Sequence record: OR062946.1
Source: Escherichia phage 310Ecol104PP
DNA length: 64,000 nt
Strand: one strand, 5' to 3'
Positions 10,804 to 30,647 of the stretch are shown in pieces. How positions within the stretch are numbered: the stretch's first letter is position 1; each line of letters opens with the position of its first letter. Under the pieces are notes generated by a model. That model was not told where the DNA came from. It searched no databases and worked only from the letters and a program-made list of their open reading frames with translations. A program made the translations under genes and the position numbers.

Positions 10804-10991
10804 TATTCTTCTACATGTTGTTTACGACCTTTCTTATCAATAAAGGTATATTCAACGAATGTTCCAATGTAGTCTTTATCTACATCATGTGGACTATTAA
10901 TTGGACATTTAGTACGGCAAATGCGTTCCCATTGACGAATAATTTCCACTTTGTTTTTAGGATCAAACGGATGTGGGTAATGTACTTTCAT
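10779..10991 (-). CDS. small hypothetical protein (70 aa)
   Basis: ORF in tk-downstream array. Confidence 0.4.
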   Translation of the reverse strand: MKVHYPHPFDPKNKVEIIRQWERICRTKCPINSPHDVDKDYIGTFVEYTFIDKKGRKQHVEEYCLKVTWL

Positions 10992-11442
10992 AATCCACCA
11001 CTATTAAATCAATATCAGGAGTAAACATGTCGATTAATTTAGAAACCTTATCCCAATCGCCGCCAGCAATACCACAACCTATGCGTGGAATGTAAATTAC
11101 TGGTTTAAACAAAAGGGTTTCTGCCTGTAGATTTAATTCTATCATGCAGTTTACTAAAGCACCATAATCAAGATTAGGACCTGGTTCGTATTGCGTATAC
11201 AGGTTATAGCATATACCAAAACCATTAGGTTTATGTTTAAAAACAATAGACATATCGCCTAATTTATCACGAGAACCGTACTCAGTAGTGGTTTTATCTA
11301 TTTCTAAAATTTTGGGATAGGCTCTTGCTAATTGACCAGCTACACCTGAACCCATAGTATGAAAACAATTGCACCCGTGCGCAATAATATTACCTTGAAG
11401 AAATAGGGCGACAATATCGCCCTTGATATATTTTACAATCAT
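10963..11442 (-). CDS. macro domain protein, TARG1/OARD1-like (putative ADP-ribose hydrolase)
   Basis: Motifs KGDI, IIAHGCNCFHTMGSGVAG and IPRIGCGIAGGDWDKV parallel the TARG1 motifs LAHCISEDCRMGAGIA and MPRIGCGLDRLQWENV as I recall them; ATG at 11440-11442. Confidence 0.7.
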   Translation of the reverse strand: MIVKYIKGDIVALFLQGNIIAHGCNCFHTMGSGVAGQLARAYPKILEIDKTTTEYGSRDKLGDMSIVFKHKPNGFGICYNLYTQYEPGPNLDYGALVNCMIELNLQAETLLFKPVIYIPRIGCGIAGGDWDKVSKLIDMFTPDIDLIVVDYESTLPTSV

Positions 11443-12325: not shown

Positions 12326-12787
12326 TCATTGAGTTTTAATTACTGCTTTAGAAGCCTTTCCTGGTAAACGACGACTGTTGATAATTGCCATCCTACATTG
12401 AAGTGACGGGTCTTTGAATTTCGCATTAGGTTTACAAACTGTAAATCCAAGCCAAAGATTTCCATCTGTGATTTCTAAACGTCCAGGACGATATTCAACC
12501 CCATCAATAAAATCCTCGTCAATGTCAGGACGCGGAGGCATACTCAGGAATTCATTAACTTCTAAAACATGGTCTTTTATTTTATGGAATAATTCAAAAA
12601 CATATGTCTCATCAATCTCCCGTTGAATTGCGCGATCAAGAAGATGCTGAGAATATTTTAGATGAAACGATGAGACCCCTGCTGCTTTTGATGCCTCACG
12701 AATCTCATTGTTAATTTGACGAAACTCCGACTCAAAGTGACGACGAAGCTTATTTCGACGGATAAAAACTTCTGTATTGATAGTCAT
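12326..12787 (-). CDS. regB: RegB site-specific endoribonuclease
   Basis: 153 aa starting MTINTEVFIRRNKLRRHFESEF, recognised as T4 RegB. Confidence 0.9.
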   Translation of the reverse strand: MTINTEVFIRRNKLRRHFESEFRQINNEIREASKAAGVSSFHLKYSQHLLDRAIQREIDETYVFELFHKIKDHVLEVNEFLSMPPRPDIDEDFIDGVEYRPGRLEITDGNLWLGFTVCKPNAKFKDPSLQCRMAIINSRRLPGKASKAVIKTQ

Positions 12788-12812
12788 GTTATTCTCCTCT
12801 TAACTGATAGAA

Positions 12813-12845
12813 AAATTATACCACAGTCAAGAGGAAAAGTAAACA
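12813..12845 (-). promoter_or_regulatory. T4-type early promoter upstream of regB (minus strand)
   Basis: gtaaac at about 12839-12844 and attatacc near 12815. Confidence 0.5.
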
Positions 12846-12846
12846 G

Positions 12847-13125
12847 TTATTCTTTAAATCTAATCAATTTATTCATAGACTTTGAAACTTCTGCATGAAC
12901 CTCATGTAAGTTTTTAAGCTGTTCAAGACGCTGTTCATAGTAAGCAATTTCATCTTCTTCGAGACAGTCCTGTGAATCTTCTTTAAGATAACGTGCATAG
13001 TCCTGAAAAGCTTTACGGACTACTTCCTGGAAGTCATCAAGACTTTGAATTTTCTTAGGAGCGGCAGATACACGACGAGGTGCAGTATAATACTCATAAC
13101 CAAACCCTGCGCTTAATTGAGCCAT
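12847..13125 (-). CDS. small hypothetical protein (92 aa)
   Basis: ATG at 13123-13125 overlapping stop of upstream gene. Confidence 0.45.
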
Positions 13126-13391
13126 TAGTATTTTTCCTCTGGTTGGAACACAGCACGGCAAGCCCACATACTTGCTTCTTTGAGTTTCGTTTTAGCAATA
13201 GTTAACTGATCGAGGCTTTCGGCGTAATTCTTCGCGAGTTCATCATCTTCACAGCTATCAAATGCTTCCCAAAATTCATCGTATAAAGCGTCAAAGATAA
13301 GTCCTAAACGAACTTCAGCGTCTTTGATAGCATTCACTTTACCGATTTTCTCTTCAGTATGCGGCTTATAACCCTTAATATCTTCAATCAT
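13125..13391 (-). CDS. small acidic protein (88 aa) at a position compatible with T4 vs.4 (Acb2); identity unverified
   Basis: Synteny only (second ORF after regB); sequence not independently recognised. Confidence 0.4.
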
Positions 13392-13605
13392 ATTTTACTT
13401 CCTCACCAGTACCTAAATCATATTCAACTAAACGAATAGGTTCATGAATGCCATATCCCTGAACAGAAATTTCTGTCGTAGGATAAATTCCATCAATATC
13501 ACCCATATTCCATGCTTCATTAAATTGCTGTTCGCCTGAATTACTAAACCATTCGGCGAAAGCATTTAGCACATCTTCAGAACCTTCAATAATTATCTTT
13601 GCCAT
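13384..13605 (-). CDS. small hypothetical protein (73 aa)
   Basis: ORF in the post-regB array. Confidence 0.4.
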   Translation of the reverse strand: MAKIIIEGSEDVLNAFAEWFSNSGEQQFNEAWNMGDIDGIYPTTEISVQGYGIHEPIRLVEYDLGTGEEVKYD

Positions 13606-13967
13606 TACAGACTCTCGGTAAAGGTACGAGCGATAACGTCGCGCTGCTGTTCCGGAGTCAGAGAGTTAAAGCGAACTGCATAACCGGATACACGGATGGT
13701 CAGCTGCGGATATTTTTCCGGATGCTTAACTGCATCTTCCAGAGTTTCACGACGCAGAACGTTTACGTTCAGGTGTTGACCACCTTCAATTTTAACTGTA
13801 GGTTGTGTTTCAATTTCAATTTCACGGGCATGTAAACCGTAGAAAATTTCTGGGTCTACAAAAGAGTCCTCTTTAAAGGTTTTAGAGACAATAATTCGTG
13901 CTTGAATACCGTCTTCAAAATAAATAGTACCTTTATGTGTGCCTTCAAGAATTTGATATGCTTTCAT
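13605..13967 (-). CDS. autonomous glycyl radical cofactor (GrcA/YfiD-like)
   Basis: C-terminal half ([60 protein letters not shown]) matches E. coli GrcA as I recall it, including the RVSGY glycyl-radical motif; host-like GC-rich codons. Confidence 0.9.
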
Positions 13968-13974
13968 ATAAACC

Positions 13975-14304
13975 TCAATTAGAAAATAAATTTATCCAAG
14001 ATTGTTCTTTAATTAAAAATGGCTCAGAATCATATGCCATTAAACTCTGTGTGATTAGTCCTTTAAAAGGCCCATCAATAAATTCCATGGTAAAATATGG
14101 AATTTTATTCATTAGCCGTGCATTAGGAGCAGTACATAAAACTCTGCATCCTTTGAATACACCTTTTTGTAATTTGTATTGCTTGGGATAAAATTCGCTC
14201 AAAATGTTGTTATTTGCCAAAATTTCAAAATGATTCACCAATTTATTTTTAATAGTTTTTGGCGAAAAATAAAGATATTCGAAAAGCTGTGTGTCTGTCA
14301 TCAT
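13975..14304 (-). CDS. hypothetical protein (about 109 aa)
   Basis: ATG at 14302-14304 overlapping stop of upstream gene. Confidence 0.4.
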
Positions 14305-14840
14305 TGCATTCCGATTACGAAAAACTGCGGACGAGTAATACCACCAATGCAACATTTACTATTACAGCAGTAGTGTACAGTGTCAATATGGACGCTATAA
14401 ATCTTATCCATATCAGGAGATTTGACAGGCTCATCGATTATATACAAAATTCGCGAAAGCGATAAACCTCTGAACTTACTTCCTTTATTACCAATAAAAC
14501 TGCGCACAGAATCAGTAAATAAACGAAAACGTATATCATCATTAGAATAACGCGAAAATTCCTTTTTAATGTTATTTGCAGAAATTTTAGCGTAAGCTGA
14601 AGTATTAGAAAGAACAATAACTGTTCCGCCATCATACAGCCAATTAGCAGCAAAGTTAGTCACAGCAATTGATTTACCGGATTGACGTCCACCATCTATA
14701 CGAAGTGTGCAGTACTGTTTAAGTAATTCTTCAAATGGCGGGATATATTCGTTTTTACAAATTTCTTCTACTCTAGCATCAGAATGGTGTGTAAAAGCAT
14801 TCATCAGGGATAGATACGGGCCAGTTAAAAATGTTCTCAT
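14301..14840 (-). CDS. small P-loop protein (about 179 aa)
   Basis: Walker A-like GGRQSGKS; ATG at 14838-14840 (MRTFLTGPY). Confidence 0.45.
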   Translation of the reverse strand: MRTFLTGPYLSLMNAFTHHSDARVEEICKNEYIPPFEELLKQYCTLRIDGGRQSGKSIAVTNFAANWLYDGGTVIVLSNTSAYAKISANNIKKEFSRYSNDDIRFRLFTDSVRSFIGNKGSKFRGLSLSRILYIIDEPVKSPDMDKIYSVHIDTVHYCCNSKCCIGGITRPQFFVIGMQ

Positions 14841-14981
14841 TTTATTCTCTCTAAATTTGGGCCATTCCATGGCGCATGAATTGTCCATTTCTGTATTTAC
14901 CCATTACCGCACTCAGGCTCGACCTTATTACAGGTTGGCGGGAATCCCTTATAGAATCATAAGGTCCAGGTTGTTCCCATA

Positions 14982-15455
14982 TTATTTGAATGATTTGACG
15001 TACTGAATAGAACCTTTACTATTCACAAAGGCAATTTTACCATTTTTGTTATACATGGTAGCAGTACGTTGATAACCATAAGTTTGTTTACCAGATTGAT
15101 AACCAACTAATGCAAAATTATCTTCACCCATTTTATTCTGCTTAGCGCGAATGCGTTCATGGCCATGTGCCATAAGAACCTTAGCATCACCCGTTGCAAT
15201 GGATCTACGAGTTTTTTCATCTTCAACTGTATTAACAAAGTCGTCAAATGAATCAAATTTAGCATGAGATTTATTATACAGTTTTCCATCTACTGCATAA
15301 TTATATCCTTGTACATCCATCTCAACTTCTGTACCGTCATCCAATACAGCAGTGATTTTCTGTCCTTTTTTAAATTTCAAAAGATCAGTAAAAGATTCAG
15401 CAATAATTTGAGAATTAATAGCTGCTTCAGTAATAAATTCTTGATATGTTTTCAT
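14982..15455 (-). CDS. internal protein candidate with capsid targeting sequence (157 aa)
   Basis: N-terminus MKTYQEFITEA matches the T4 internal-protein CTS (MKTYQEFIAEA-type); sits at the T4 ipII/ipIII position next to e. Confidence 0.65.
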   Translation of the reverse strand: MKTYQEFITEAAINSQIIAESFTDLLKFKKGQKITAVLDDGTEVEMDVQGYNYAVDGKLYNKSHAKFDSFDDFVNTVEDEKTRRSIATGDAKVLMAHGHERIRAKQNKMGEDNFALVGYQSGKQTYGYQRTATMYNKNGKIAFVNSKGSIQYVKSFK

Positions 15456-15471
15456 GTGTATCCTTTAATTT

Positions 15472-15789
15472 TTATTCTTTAGGGAAGTTTTTAGAATATG
15501 CATCATAAAGCTTATTTCCAATACGGCGGAAAACTCTAGCCGCAAAACGATTTTCTGGGTTTTTAATCATGATTTGCATCATATAAGTACCCGCGTCAGA
15601 AAGAGCTTCTTCATAGTACCCGTTAATTTCTTTAAGAGTCCTACGTTTACCACCAGGACCATCAACAGTGATTTTCCATTTACCTGTAGAAGTGCGACTT
15701 GGCGGCTCAACTTGTTCAATCCAGATATAACCACCTTCTACACGTTGTCCTGCAGCAGATTCTGCAATAAATTCTTTATACGTTTTCAT
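15472..15789 (-). CDS. internal protein candidate with capsid targeting sequence (105 aa)
   Basis: N-terminus MKTYKEFIAES; adjacent to the other CTS gene and to e. Confidence 0.65.
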   Translation of the reverse strand: MKTYKEFIAESAAGQRVEGGYIWIEQVEPPSRTSTGKWKITVDGPGGKRRTLKEINGYYEEALSDAGTYMMQIMIKNPENRFAARVFRRIGNKLYDAYSKNFPKE

Positions 15790-15823
15790 GTGTTTCCTTT
15801 AAATATTTTAATTAGTAACTGTG

Positions 15824-15857
15824 AATATACTATCACAGTTCTAGGAGAAAGTAAACA
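15824..15857 (-). promoter_or_regulatory. T4-type early promoter upstream of the CTS genes (minus strand)
   Basis: gtaaac at 15851-15856 and atatactatc near 15825. Confidence 0.5.
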
Positions 15858-15860
15858 ACT

Positions 15861-16391
<531 letters not shown>

Positions 16392-16847
16392 TTAAAAGAG
16401 GTTGTTCATTATTCGGTAAAGTGAAGGACCCATCACATATTGCCACTGAGTGCGAGGAATAAGAGCAAAAGCATCCATCTCTGGAATCATAACGCCATCT
16501 TTATTTTCAAAATAAGACTCGCAATGGCAATTTCTGAACATCTCATGCTCTACTGGAATCGTATAATAAAACAACTGTAGGTCTTTATTACTAGAATATT
16601 TAAATACACCTAGGTCTTCTAGAAGGTCTGGATTATAATTGCTAAAACCGGTCTCTTCTAAGCATTCTCTTCGTGCTGCATCTAATGCGCTTAAATCAGA
16701 ATTTTCTACACGGCCCTTTGGAATATCCCAACGATGTGCCATCATTCCAGGCTTACGAGAACCAGTAACCCGACCCATAAATAAATCTTTATCTTCTGTC
16801 ATAAAAATAATACCAGCTGATAATGTTTTCATTTTAATTTCCTGCAT
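16392..16847 (-). CDS. nudE: Nudix hydrolase
   Basis: Nudix box GRVENSDLSALDAARRECLEETGF; 151 aa adjacent to e as in T4. Confidence 0.8.
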   Translation of the reverse strand: MQEIKMKTLSAGIIFMTEDKDLFMGRVTGSRKPGMMAHRWDIPKGRVENSDLSALDAARRECLEETGFSNYNPDLLEDLGVFKYSSNKDLQLFYYTIPVEHEMFRNCHCESYFENKDGVMIPEMDAFALIPRTQWQYVMGPSLYRIMNNLF

Positions 16848-21314: not shown

Positions 21315-21317
21315 CCA

Positions 21318-21344
21318 AAAAGCCCCAACCTTTCGGTCGGGGCT
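21318..21344 (-). terminator. rho-independent terminator (minus strand), copy 1 of a duplicated hairpin
   Basis: ccaaaaagccccaacctttcggtcggggct; minus-strand hairpin followed by TTTTT. Confidence 0.5.
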
Positions 21345-21394
21345 AAGCCTTGCGGCAACCTTGTCGGGGTTCCACCTGCTAAGGCAAGTGTTTG

Positions 21395-21556
21395 TACGAA
21401 ACGCCGGGATTCGAACCCGGTTATTAAGTAGTTGACGCTACTTAATATTTTTAAAAGGCCATATCTCGACCATATCCGAACGTTCCGTCAAAAACGCTAC
21501 TCGGCTTACGGCAAAGATATTTCCTCGAATCGATAATTCGGTGCGCCGTTTCTGCT
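21395..21556 (-). ncRNA. candidate tRNA-like stable RNA (possibly analogous to T4 rnaC/rnaD)
   Basis: Canonical T-arm CCGGGTTCGAATCCCGG and acceptor-like pairing, but no standard cloverleaf or anticodon arm; lies just 3' of tRNA-Arg. Confidence 0.3.
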
Positions 21557-21655
21557 GTGATGTAAGAGGGCATCAACAAATCATAAAGATTTATTAACAC
21601 GATTCCTTACCCAGGGAACATCAGTCCGACGACTTACCGGTAGCGACCCGGTTTC

Positions 21656-22006
21656 TTAATATTCTTTTAAAGCATCAATCTGTTCACGGCGTAAACGCCA
21701 TAAATCAATTGCTTCATACGCAGATTCAGCATTTCGAATTAGCCGACATTTATATAAAGACTTATGATTTTGATATTGTGTAGATAACGGAATTTTATCT
21801 AAAAGGTCTTTACGTTCAAAATATTCGTAACCATCTAAACCAAATGAACGATTTTTAAGAAATTGCCAATGTCCAAATTCGTTTTCAACATAAACATAAT
21901 CTGCATGCTGATAAAGTAAATTAATTACACGTTCAGAAATAACAGTATCATTATGATTAAAATAGAATGTTAAATCATGAACTACTAAATAAACATTACC
22001 TTTCAT
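21656..22006 (-). CDS. hypothetical protein (about 116 aa) inside the tRNA region
   Basis: ATG at 22004-22006 (MKGNVYLVV) preceded by GAGGAAAA; the longer track ORF overlaps tRNA-Arg. Confidence 0.45.
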   Translation of the reverse strand: MKGNVYLVVHDLTFYFNHNDTVISERVINLLYQHADYVYVENEFGHWQFLKNRSFGLDGYEYFERKDLLDKIPLSTQYQNHKSLYKCRLIRNAESAYEAIDLWRLRREQIDALKEY

Positions 22007-22024
22007 ATTTTCCTCACTTATAAT

Positions 22025-22100
<76 letters not shown>

Positions 22101-22104
22101 GTAT

Positions 22105-22179
22105 TTGGCGGACGTGATAGGATTCGAACCTATAACCAATCGCTTAACAGGCGATCGCTCTGCCATTGAGCTACACATC
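22105..22179 (-). tRNA. tRNA-Asn (anticodon GTT)
   Basis: Cloverleaf GGATGTG-TA-GCTCAATGGCAGAGC; anticodon loop CTGTTAA; T-loop TTCGAAT; CCA encoded. Confidence 0.8.
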
Positions 22180-22183
22180 CAAA

Positions 22184-22270
22184 TTGGTGGGGAGTGATGG
22201 AGTCGAACCACCCGAGTCGCAATGACAATGGATTTACAGTCCACACCGCTACCTCTACGGGATAACTCCC
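22184..22270 (-). tRNA. tRNA-Tyr (anticodon GTA), long variable arm
   Basis: Acceptor GGGGAGT/ACTCCCC; anticodon loop CTGTAAA; T-arm GGTGG-TTCGACT-CCATC; D-stem imperfect; CCA encoded. Confidence 0.7.
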
Positions 22271-22279
22271 CAAATTAAT

Positions 22280-22354
22280 TTGGTGGCCCTGGGTGGAATT
22301 GAACCACCATCTGGCGATTATGAGTCGCTTGCTTGAACCTTCCAGCTACAGGGC
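22280..22354 (-). tRNA. tRNA with CAT anticodon (Ile2-type or elongator Met)
   Basis: Acceptor GGCCCTG/CAGGGCC; anticodon loop CTCATAA; at the position of T4 tRNA-Ile. Confidence 0.7.
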
Positions 22355-22355
22355 C

Positions 22356-22431
22356 TTGGTGCTGATTGACGGAATCGAACCGCCGACCTTCTCATTACAA
22401 GTGAGTTGCTCTACCTACTGAGCTAAATCAG
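22356..22431 (-). tRNA. tRNA-Thr (anticodon TGT)
   Basis: Acceptor GCTGATT/AATCAGC; D-arm AGCTCAGTAGGTAGAGC; anticodon loop CTTGTAA; CCA encoded. Confidence 0.8.
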
Positions 22432-22436
22432 CAAAA

Positions 22437-22526
22437 CTGGCGGAGGCGATAGGATTTGAACCTATGAGTCGCCGGAGCGACTGCCGGTTTTCAAGACCGG
22501 TGCATTAAACCACTCTGCCACGCCTC
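22437..22526 (-). tRNA. tRNA-Ser (anticodon TGA), long variable arm
   Basis: Acceptor GGAGGCG/CGCCTCC; anticodon stem CCGGT/ACCGG with loop CTTGAAA; CCA encoded. Confidence 0.8.
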
Positions 22527-22528
22527 CA

Positions 22529-22602
22529 GTCTCCATACAAGGATTTGAACCTTGGACCTCCTGATCCCAAATCAGGCGCTCTACCAAACTGAGCTACACG
22601 GA
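22529..22602 (-). tRNA. tRNA-Pro (anticodon TGG)
   Basis: Acceptor CTCCGTG/TATGGAG; anticodon loop TTTGGGA; T-loop TTCAAAT; CCA not encoded. Confidence 0.75.
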
Positions 22603-22612
22603 GTAAATTAAA

Positions 22613-22687
<75 letters not shown>

Positions 22688-28936: not shown

Positions 28937-30647
28937 TAACCTTAATTGGTTTGTTGGTGTTGTTGAAGATAGAATGGACCCATTAAAATTAGGTCGTGTT
29001 CGTGTTCGTGTGGTTGGTCTGCATCCACCTCAAAGAGCGCAAGGCGACGTAATGGGTATTCCAACAGATAAATTACCATGGATGTCAGTTATTCAACCTA
29101 TAACTTCTGCAGCAATGTCTGGAATTGGAGGCTCCGTTACTGGTCCGGTAGAAGGAACTAGAGTTTATGGTCATTTTTTAGACAAATGGAAAACTAATGG
29201 AATTGTCCTTGGCACGTATGGTGGAATAGTTCGCGAAAAGCCTAATAGACTTGAAGGATTTTCTGACCCGACTGGACAGTATCCTAGACGTCTAGGAAAT
29301 GATACTAACGTATTAAACCAAGGCGGAGAAGTAGGATATGATTCGTCTTCTAATATTATCCAAGATAGTAATTTAGATACTGCGATAAATCCTGATGATA
29401 GACCACTATCAGAGATTCCAACTGATGATAATCCAAATATGTCAATGACTGAAATGCTTCGCCGTGACGAAGGATTAAGACTAAAAGTTTATTGGGATAC
29501 TGGAGGATATCCGACAATTGGTATTGGTCATCTTATCATGAAGCAGCCAGTTCGTGATATGACCCAAATTAATAAAGTTTTATCAAAACAAGTTGGTCGT
29601 GAAATTACCGGAAATCCAGGTTCTATTACAATGGAAGAAGCGGTAACTTTATTTGAACGTGATTTAGCTGATATGCAACGTGACATTAAATCACATTCTA
29701 AAGTTGGCCCAGTTTGGAAAGCAGTTAATCGTTCTCGTCAAATGGCATTAGAAAATATGGCATTTCAGATGGGCGTTGGCGGTGTAGCTAAATTTAACAC
29801 AATGTTAACAGCTATGTTAGCCGGAGATTGGGAAAAAGCATATAAAGCTGGTCGTGATTCATTGTGGTATCAACAAACAAAAGGCCGTGCATCCCGTGTT
29901 ACCATGATTATTCTTACAGGTAATTTGGAATCATACGGTATTGAAGTTAAAACACCAGCTAGGTCTTTGTCAGCAATGGCTGCTACTGTAGCAAAGTCTT
30001 CTGATCCAGCTGACCCTCCTATTCCGAATGATTCGAGAATTTTATTCAAAGAACCTGTTTCTTCATATAAAGGTGAATATCCGTATGTTCACACAATGGA
30101 AACTGAAAGCGGTCATATTCAGGAATTTGACGATACCCCGGGACAAGAACGATACAGATTAGTTCATCCGACTGGAACATATGAGGAAGTATCACCGTCA
30201 GGAAGAAGAACAAGAAAAACTGTTGACAATTTGTATGATATAACAAATGCTGATGGTAATTTTTTGGTAGCTGGCGATAAAAAGACTAACGTCGGTGGAT
30301 CAGAAATTTATTACAACATGGATAATCGTCTCCACCAAATAGATGGAAGCAATACAATATTTGTGCGTGGCGATGAAACTAAGACGGTTGAAGGTAATGG
30401 AACTATCCTAGTCAAAGGTAATGTTACTATTGTAGTTGAAGGTAATGCTGACATTACAGTTAAAGGGGATGCTACCACTTTAGTTGAAGGAAATCAGACT
30501 AATACAGTAAATGGAAATCTTTCTTGGAAAGTTGCTGGGACAGTTGATTGGGACGTTGGTGGTGATTGGACAGAAAAAATGGCATCTATGAGTTCTATTT
30601 CATCTGGTCAATACACAATTGATGGATCGAGGATTGACATTGGCTAA
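28920..30647 (+). CDS. 5: baseplate hub subunit and tail lysozyme gp5
   Basis: 575 aa starting MEMISNNLNWFVGVVED; internal lysozyme domain (EMLRRDEGLRLKVYWDTGGYPTIGIGHL) and C-terminal VxGxxxV beta-helix repeats. Confidence 0.95.
   Translation: MEMISNNLNWFVGVVEDRMDPLKLGRVRVRVVGLHPPQRAQGDVMGIPTDKLPWMSVIQPITSAAMSGIGGSVTGPVEGTRVYGHFLDKWKTNGIVLGTYGGIVREKPNRLEGFSDPTGQYPRRLGNDTNVLNQGGEVGYDSSSNIIQDSNLDTAINPDDRPLSEIPTDDNPNMSMTEMLRRDEGLRLKVYWDTGGYPTIGIGHLIMKQPVRDMTQINKVLSKQVGREITGNPGSITMEEAVTLFERDLADMQRDIKSHSKVGPVWKAVNRSRQMALENMAFQMGVGGVAKFNTMLTAMLAGDWEKAYKAGRDSLWYQQTKGRASRVTMIILTGNLESYGIEVKTPARSLSAMAATVAKSSDPADPPIPNDSRILFKEPVSSYKGEYPYVHTMETESGHIQEFDDTPGQERYRLVHPTGTYEEVSPSGRRTRKTVDNLYDITNADGNFLVAGDKKTNVGGSEIYYNMDNRLHQIDGSNTIFVRGDETKTVEGNGTILVKGNVTIVVEGNADITVKGDATTLVEGNQTNTVNGNLSWKVAGTVDWDVGGDWTEKMASMSSISSGQYTIDGSRIDIG

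Follow-up and report, generated by a model that had tools for sequence, protein, structure and literature searches.

The window, that is, the whole 64,000 nt stretch of Escherichia phage 310Ecol104PP (OR062946.1) that we have analyzed, contains an open reading frame on the minus strand at positions 13605–13967. It starts with ATG, ends with TAA and codes for a protein of 120 amino acids. This is a vs.6 gene (Y06I-type), coding for a homologue of GrcA, as indicated by the open reading frame, Pfam, the 6owr structure, PHROG 1209 and synteny. Its neighbours correspond to a genome of the Tequatrovirus (T4-like) type: a tblastn search with RB51 proteins finds vs, vs.1, regB, vs.3, vs.4, vs.5, vs.6, vs.7, vs.8, Ip4, e and nudE in the same order as in RB51. 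The order vs.7-vs.6-vs.5 is kept, and the product of 13605–13967 is 100% identical to RB51 vs.6. The phrog_1209 family matches the product over its full length (residues 1–120, E-value 5.4e-63). A megablast search finds 756 phage records which match the vs.6 DNA, many of them annotated as "autonomous glycyl radical cofactor GrcA"; this GrcA annotation is found across hundreds of phage records. The exact DNA sequence is also present in other Escherichia phages, and an identical protein is on record as GrcA in members of Tequatrovirus. The gene and its function are already known: The T4 orthologue was characterized in 2001.

A GAGG sequence, which may be a Shine-Dalgarno-like site, can be read 5 nt upstream of the ATG (13973–13976, minus strand), where it overlaps the vs.7 stop codon. 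A scan of positions 12700–16500 for promoters and terminators does not reveal any usable transcription signal; 11 promoter-like sites are found, as compared with 14.5 in shuffled sequences.

Several other genes of the window differ from their RB51 counterparts. The vs.4 homologue (13125–13391, minus strand) matches the Pfam Acb2/Tad1 hairpin domain with an E-value of 8.2e-20, which corresponds to the family of anti-CBASS/Thoeris signal sponges. It is only 66.7% identical to RB51 vs.4, while the flanking vs.3 and vs.5 are 97–98% identical. Its features resemble those of an anti-defence gene with local hypervariability, situated two genes downstream of vs.6. The tk.4 homologue (macro/A1pp domain, 10963–11442, minus strand) shares only 56% identity with RB51 tk.4, in contrast to its neighbours vs and vs.1, for which identity is 100%. 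The denV gene (endonuclease V), which in RB51 sits between Ip4 and e, is not detected by tblastn in any part of the window. In its position we find a 105 amino acid open reading frame starting with MKTYKEFIAE, a leader of the internal protein type, beside an Ip4 homologue which is 99% identical (15472–15789 and 14982–15455, both on the minus strand). The region of the tRNA cluster is the most GC-rich part of the window (GC-rich segments in 21315–22644), and positions 22120–22274 show 83–90% megablast matches to tRNA-Tyr and tRNA-Thr genes on E. coli plasmid records of about 100 kb. A second region similar to lysozyme e is found at 29439–29936 (plus strand), with 43% identity over 161 amino acids. 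Judging by its position, it presumably corresponds to the lysozyme domain of gp5, a protein of the baseplate hub.

The vs.6 product is a small, stand-alone C-terminal glycyl radical domain, without the barrel of glycyl radical enzymes. The Pfam Gly_radical profile matches residues 60–101 with an E-value of 2.2e-18, and only positions 65–106 of the 106 in the profile are covered. The best match among solved structures is the NMR structure of E. coli GrcA (6owr), with an E-value of 4.6e-42 from residue 22 to the end of the protein; the next PDB match is PflB, limited to its residues 697–759 (E-value 4.8e-26). The glycyl radical motif RVSGY corresponds to residues 92–96 (13680–13694, minus strand). 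Its radical glycine is G95, whose codon is located at 13683–13685 and which is equivalent to G102 in GrcA and to G734 in PflB. The initial annotation had described a GrcA-like glycyl radical cofactor whose C-terminal 60 residues match GrcA, RVSGY included, and this description is borne out by the Pfam and 6owr matches: Residues 60–120 are identical to E. coli GrcA in 61 of 61 positions. Loss of the radical glycine was looked for in the GrcA alignment, and G95 is present. The T4 homologue which the initial annotation mentioned does exist. It is the biochemically characterized Y06I, which differs at 2 of its 120 residues. The GrcA equivalog model of NCBIfam, TIGR04365, gives 154.6 bits, below its cut-off of 170 bits, and only covers residues 20–120. 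The score falls below the cut-off because the N-terminal half has diverged. Given this score, it cannot be assumed that the N-terminal half behaves in the same way as that of GrcA.

The two halves of the gene have a different base composition. The 5' half has 33% GC, the 3' half 49% and the whole window 36%, while GC at third codon positions is 0.19 in the 5' half and 0.44 in the 3' half. The composition of E. coli grcA is uniform over both halves, which fits a transfer from host to phage. A 172 nt tract in the 3' half has 49.4% GC, which places it in the top 1% of the 172 nt segments of the window (z = 2.8), and its third position GC is above that of all 44 other long open reading frames in the window (mean 0.24, maximum 0.35). 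Its codons are those preferred by E. coli: All five leucines use CTG (8% in the genes of the window), all three prolines use CCG (16%) and ATC is used in two of two cases. It had been noted from the sequence that the DNA is more GC-rich than its surroundings and has host-like codons. Total GC, third position GC and codon counts, compared with the open reading frames of the window, confirm this for the 3' half. The composition is host-like there because the DNA is host DNA, as described below.

The tract comprises nucleotides 179–350 of the gene (13618–13789, minus strand; residues 60/61–116). In a codon-level alignment with E. coli grcA (allele L001), all 172 nucleotides are identical and dS is 0. 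A blastn search shows that grcA aligns to nucleotides 179–363 of the gene at 98.4% in all 5,426 complete E. coli genomes; 3009 of the 5426 are at least 99% identical to the tract. For every E. coli genome, the best match within positions 1–25000 of the window is this tract. Such a run of 172 identical positions is extremely improbable (P about 2e-12) for a per-site identity of 85.5%; values of about 85% are typical of other phage lineages. We have also compared the tract with the grcA genes of the 80 species closest to E. coli GrcA, a set which does not include K. pneumoniae. The closest grcA outside Escherichia is at most 92% identical, judging from the species representatives, and the donor was therefore Escherichia.

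From nucleotide 179 to the end of the gene, the only differences from E. coli are three synonymous changes in nucleotides 351–357, ACC GAG AGT instead of ACT GAA AGC. They fall at the right end of the tract, which is followed by a phage-type tail (nucleotides 351–363; 13605–13617, minus strand) whose TAA overlaps the start of vs.5 (TAATG). This tail is shared with leB and Matisse. Since GAG AGT is common to these distant phages, the tail represents phage sequence that has been kept, and the host tract stops within the gene. The Matisse record annotates the GAG of the tail as the ribosome-binding site of the downstream gene. One may speculate that the tail changes have been kept because GAG is the ribosome-binding site of vs.5; T4 has a host-like GAA there. 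The left end of the tract coincides with the start of the conserved block coding for EGGQHLNV, where phage and host are similar enough for recombination.

The 5' half (nucleotides 1–178, residues 1–59; 13790–13967, minus strand) is AT-rich and diverged, and has no blastn match in the 5,426 complete E. coli genomes. Composition and profile comparison assign it to the N-terminal region of a phage GrcA lineage. The initial annotation had considered the N-terminal half as specific to phages. We have compared alignments of the phage and bacterial N-terminal halves with hhalign, leaving the radical domain out of both, and they are clearly related: The probability is 96.5% and the E-value 7.7e-10, over 62 columns with 26% identity. 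It is therefore a diverged homologue of the N-terminal half of GrcA itself. This half, including RE.EIE.QPTVK, is conserved in T4-like genera and can be recognized in homologues from T5-like, Aeromonas and jumbo phages. As the N-terminal halves are homologous, the gene was already a full-length GrcA homologue before the patch. Judging from these comparisons, vs.6 is homologous to GrcA over its full length, and its 5' half has drifted towards the composition of phage DNA. The acquisition from the host proposed in the initial annotation is correct as far as the 3' half is concerned, as its DNA is E. coli grcA itself. It does not correspond to a simple acquisition, as an older full-length homologue appears to carry a recent internal patch.

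Phages without a fresh patch illustrate how the radical domain evolves. In leB, Matisse and IME-CF2, the block is 97–100% identical to host GrcA in amino acids, with 15–19% nucleotide differences. The radical block of leB differs from that of E. coli by 24 synonymous and no nonsynonymous changes. This pattern implies strong purifying selection on the radical domain in phages, while synonymous sites are free to change. Constraint, then, cannot explain the identity of 172 out of 172 nucleotides.

Comparison of the window with three Mosigvirus genomes gives an indication of the age of the patch. In the tract, dS is only 0.05–0.13, as compared with 0.31–0.40 in the 5' half of vs.6, 0.9–1.2 in vs.7 and 1.6–1.8 in vs.5; the contrast of the tract is highly significant (Fisher p from 2.5e-6 to 9e-9). 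By this measure, the patch is much younger than the gene and the genomes which carry it. When the window is compared with T4, dS is about 1.1 in vs.5 (13384–13605, minus strand) and 0.18 in vs.7 (13975–14301, minus strand). The uneven divergence around vs.6 (loci L003 and L093–L095) suggests that vs.6 itself may have been exchanged between phage genera.

It should be noted that most Tequatrovirus and Mosigvirus alleles have a T at nucleotide 204, where the window has the A of E. coli. The tract of ST0, which contains SNPs specific to Mosigvirus, has a best E. coli match of 98.8%, as compared with 98.3% for the reference allele, and at most one SNP coincides. The E. coli tract could derive from a single acquisition followed by spread from phage to phage, or from several conversions with E. 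coli donors. The shared T at nucleotide 204 and the low divergence of the 5' half do not allow these two possibilities to be separated.

A matching patch is found in Klebsiella phages. The radical domains of the two hosts have a two-residue difference, LLDAVEH in Klebsiella and Raoultella GrcA and LEDAVKH in E. coli. Klebsiella phages of the Jiaodavirus and Slopekvirus genera carry LLDAVEH, while E. coli phages carry LEDAVKH. Of the phage records in the isolate collection, 114 reach at least 95% identity to the K. pneumoniae tract, the best one being KPV15 with 99.4%; those listed among the 114 all belong to phages of Klebsiella or Raoultella. For phages of E. coli and Shigella, identity to this tract is 86–89%, a value which corresponds to the divergence between the grcA genes of the two hosts. 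When Klebsiella phages are compared with the 80-species grcA set, in which K. pneumoniae is not included, the values are 90–92%. We have also considered vB_Kpn_AM_K5 (174 kb) as a third phage genus with a Klebsiella tract, and discarded it: It belongs to Jiaodavirus as well.

A metagenome scan with a 53 nt query from the Jiaodavirus tract finds 24 grcA genes of bacterial type, in contigs of up to 620 kb, with 56–57% GC in the loci that were checked. The protein coded by this bacterial allele is exactly K. pneumoniae GrcA. The same scan finds one contig with a full gene of phage type and one truncated gene with a phage-type ending. A contig of Jiaodavirus type (L106) has no mismatches to the K. 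pneumoniae allele over about 158 nt (approximately nucleotides 181 to 338), flanked by a phage-type 5' half and a phage-type tail. The Jiaodavirus tract, 99–100% identical to K. pneumoniae grcA, supports an independent conversion event. As the tracts in two genera are identical to the alleles that their hosts have today, co-divergence cannot explain them. Between two Jiaodavirus phages, KP179 and KPNOM02, identity is 93.6% over the tract, as compared with 96.6% over the 5' half. The tract is thus more variable than the 5' half, and several donors may have been involved; the KP179 tract, which reaches only 91% identity with K. pneumoniae, might come from another species of Klebsiella or Raoultella.

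Conversion is not universal, as no host-identical tract is found in the homologues of Enterobacter phage PG7, T5-like phages and jumbo phages. The PG7 homologue (L005, 301–654) ends three residues early (...SRTFT*). It carries LSKETLEDAVQH, which corresponds neither to Enterobacter GrcA (LMDAVEH) nor to E. coli, so that matching to the host is not universal either. In two other phages, KPV15 (L128, 322–683) and vB-Eco-KMB39 (OR539219.1, 59730–60147), vs.6 is annotated as two coding sequences. The KMB39 match consists of two pieces which together span 418 nt, as compared with the usual 363. In some phages the gene could therefore be disrupted by an insertion, a frameshift or an error of sequencing.

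Both E. coli YfiD and T4 Y06I are reported to restore, in vitro, the activity of oxygen-cleaved pyruvate formate-lyase (PFL) after installation of the glycyl radical by PFL-AE, according to Wagner et al. 2001 (PMID 11444864) as cited in PMC8683613. GrcA's N-terminal half (1–60), which is disordered, promotes both activation and the binding to cleaved PFL, and is not needed for catalysis (PMC8683613). The protein of the window would have the same PFL rescue activity, given its 98.3% identity to T4 Y06I, and by analogy its N-terminal half may act as that of GrcA does in activation and in binding to cleaved PFL. We have not found any in vivo fitness role for vs.6 in the literature examined.

These data suggest a possible sequence of events. 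The vs.6 protein would be made after infection from the vs.8-vs.7-vs.6-vs.5 gene run of the early region. The radical-SAM activase of the host, PflA (PFL-AE), would abstract a hydrogen from the Gly95 residue of the RVSGY loop. The C-terminal domain, whose amino acids are those of host GrcA and which is about 78% identical to PflB 697–759, would then insert into PFL that oxygen has cut at Gly734. Repaired PFL would again convert pyruvate to acetyl-CoA and formate, and the infected cell could keep making ATP and acetyl-CoA under fluctuating oxygen. As for the gene, it would be an old resident of T4-like phages, in which the DNA of the radical domain has probably been overwritten by homologous recombination (gene conversion) with chromosomal grcA. 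The converted segment would coincide almost exactly with the part in which the genes of phage and host are still similar enough for recombination. E. coli would be the donor in the Tequatrovirus/Mosigvirus lineage, which includes the window, and K. pneumoniae would have been, independently, the donor in Jiaodavirus. We consider this reading, an old phage gene for a stand-alone glycyl radical spare part with a radical domain overwritten by conversion from host grcA, as the most probable one, with a probability of about 85%.

Other origins of the tract may be considered. A single ancient acquisition, maintained by extreme nucleotide constraint (codon optimization or RNA structure) with no recent recombination, would agree with the high expression and strong codon bias of grcA and with the host-preferred codons of the tract. 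Nevertheless, in other phage lineages the amino acids have stayed the same at a nucleotide divergence of 15–19%, and Klebsiella phages match K. pneumoniae and not E. coli exactly at the sites where the hosts differ. As the hosts differ by about 12–13%, a lock-step co-divergence with no changes at all is not credible, and we regard this explanation as extremely unlikely. An assembly chimera or contamination with host DNA is a generic concern for any phage segment identical to its host, with nothing specific in its favour in this case. Both the T4 reference genome and over 740 independent phage records contain this in-frame mosaic, with junctions at homologous positions at the codon level within one open reading frame, which makes an artefact hardly conceivable.

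Different functions for the protein may also be proposed. A comparative paper published in 2006 (PMC1524935) suggested, from the shared Pfam Gly_radical match, a role with the phage anaerobic ribonucleotide reductase NrdD, so that vs.6 would be a spare part or accessory in nucleotide metabolism. T4-type phages do code for NrdD and NrdG. However, the C-terminal 221 amino acids of T4 NrdD have no detectable similarity to the vs.6 product (BLASTP E = 1.4), the RVSGY and RRTCGY regions do not align and the PDB search finds enzymes of the PFL class and no ribonucleotide reductase. As the amino acids of the radical domain are those of host GrcA, and PFL rescue is reported for Y06I in the work cited above, a role with NrdD appears very unlikely. 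The vs.6 protein might also be a decoy, which sequesters PFL-AE or occupies PFL and so re-routes or stops host fermentation. The N-terminal half has diverged strongly and lacks about 7 residues as compared with that of GrcA, this half governs binding and activation in GrcA (PMC8683613), and the score is under the equivalog cut-off: These points speak for a decoy. Against it, T4 Y06I is said to reconstitute active PFL (cited in PMC8683613), and strict purifying selection toward the host radical domain, including the glycine loop, is found in many phage lineages, something which a pure decoy would not need. We therefore consider a decoy as unlikely. Repair of PFL by a spare part with a converted radical domain is the reading that we retain.

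A more general suggestion is that T4-like phages keep the radical domain of GrcA matched to their current host by repeated overwriting with grcA; we give this an even chance. The sequence comparisons support at least two independent conversion events, in which the DNA came from E. coli and from K. pneumoniae. Conversion may be adaptive, or it may be a neutral by-product of homology. If the suggestion is true, it would be a host-tracking mechanism in strictly lytic coliphages which degrade host DNA, and it would imply a measurable and ongoing flow of chromosomal DNA from the host to virulent phages. In any case, the locus is an unusually clean and datable example of gene conversion from the chromosome to virulent phages, in two host genera. 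It could be used as a natural assay of the rate of recombination from host to phage, and the tract could mark the recent host history of T4-like phages (E. coli or Klebsiella). The E77L/K81E differences between E. coli and Klebsiella GrcA (phage numbering) also allow their effect on docking into the cognate PFL to be probed. In the searchable full-text literature, we have found no account of the host-identical patch in vs.6 or of its Klebsiella counterpart; the T4 genome review or the GrcA NMR paper might mention it.

The closest known system is T4 Y06I (vs.6, NP_049730), an orthologue of equal length located between vs.7 and vs.5, with 118 identical residues out of 120. The two differences are T54P and R73H, where T4 has the latter residues. 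T4 also presents the mosaic of a phage-type 5' half and an E. coli-type 3' tract, but its tract has two mismatches to E. coli grcA, while the window has none, and the right junction is ACT GAA AGT TTG in T4 and ACC GAG AGT CTG in the window. E. coli GrcA/YfiD (6owr, TIGR04365) shares with vs.6 the stand-alone radical domain, the 61 C-terminal residues and 172 nt of DNA. In contrast, the N-terminal half of vs.6 is only about 26% identical to that of GrcA and some 7 residues shorter, and the NSFWLLD segment of bacterial GrcA is missing. The short GrcA2 and GrcA3 proteins (NF008341 and NF038360) have the radical domain in common with vs.6, with E-values of 5.6e-27 and 5.7e-31. They are roughly 80 amino acids long and lack the N-terminal half, whereas vs.6 keeps a full-length, diverged N-terminal half and scores below their cut-offs.

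Finally, the psbA and psbD genes of cyanophages show a patchy G+C content and statistical evidence of segment exchange between host and phage (PMC1484495). They are likewise host-derived metabolic genes in T4-like phages with intragenic recombination, and this precedent means that recombination between host and phage within a gene is not new in kind. The gene, the hosts and the environment are different. In vs.6, the patch is a single clean tract, 100% identical to that of a named donor species, and two host genera correspond to two patches.
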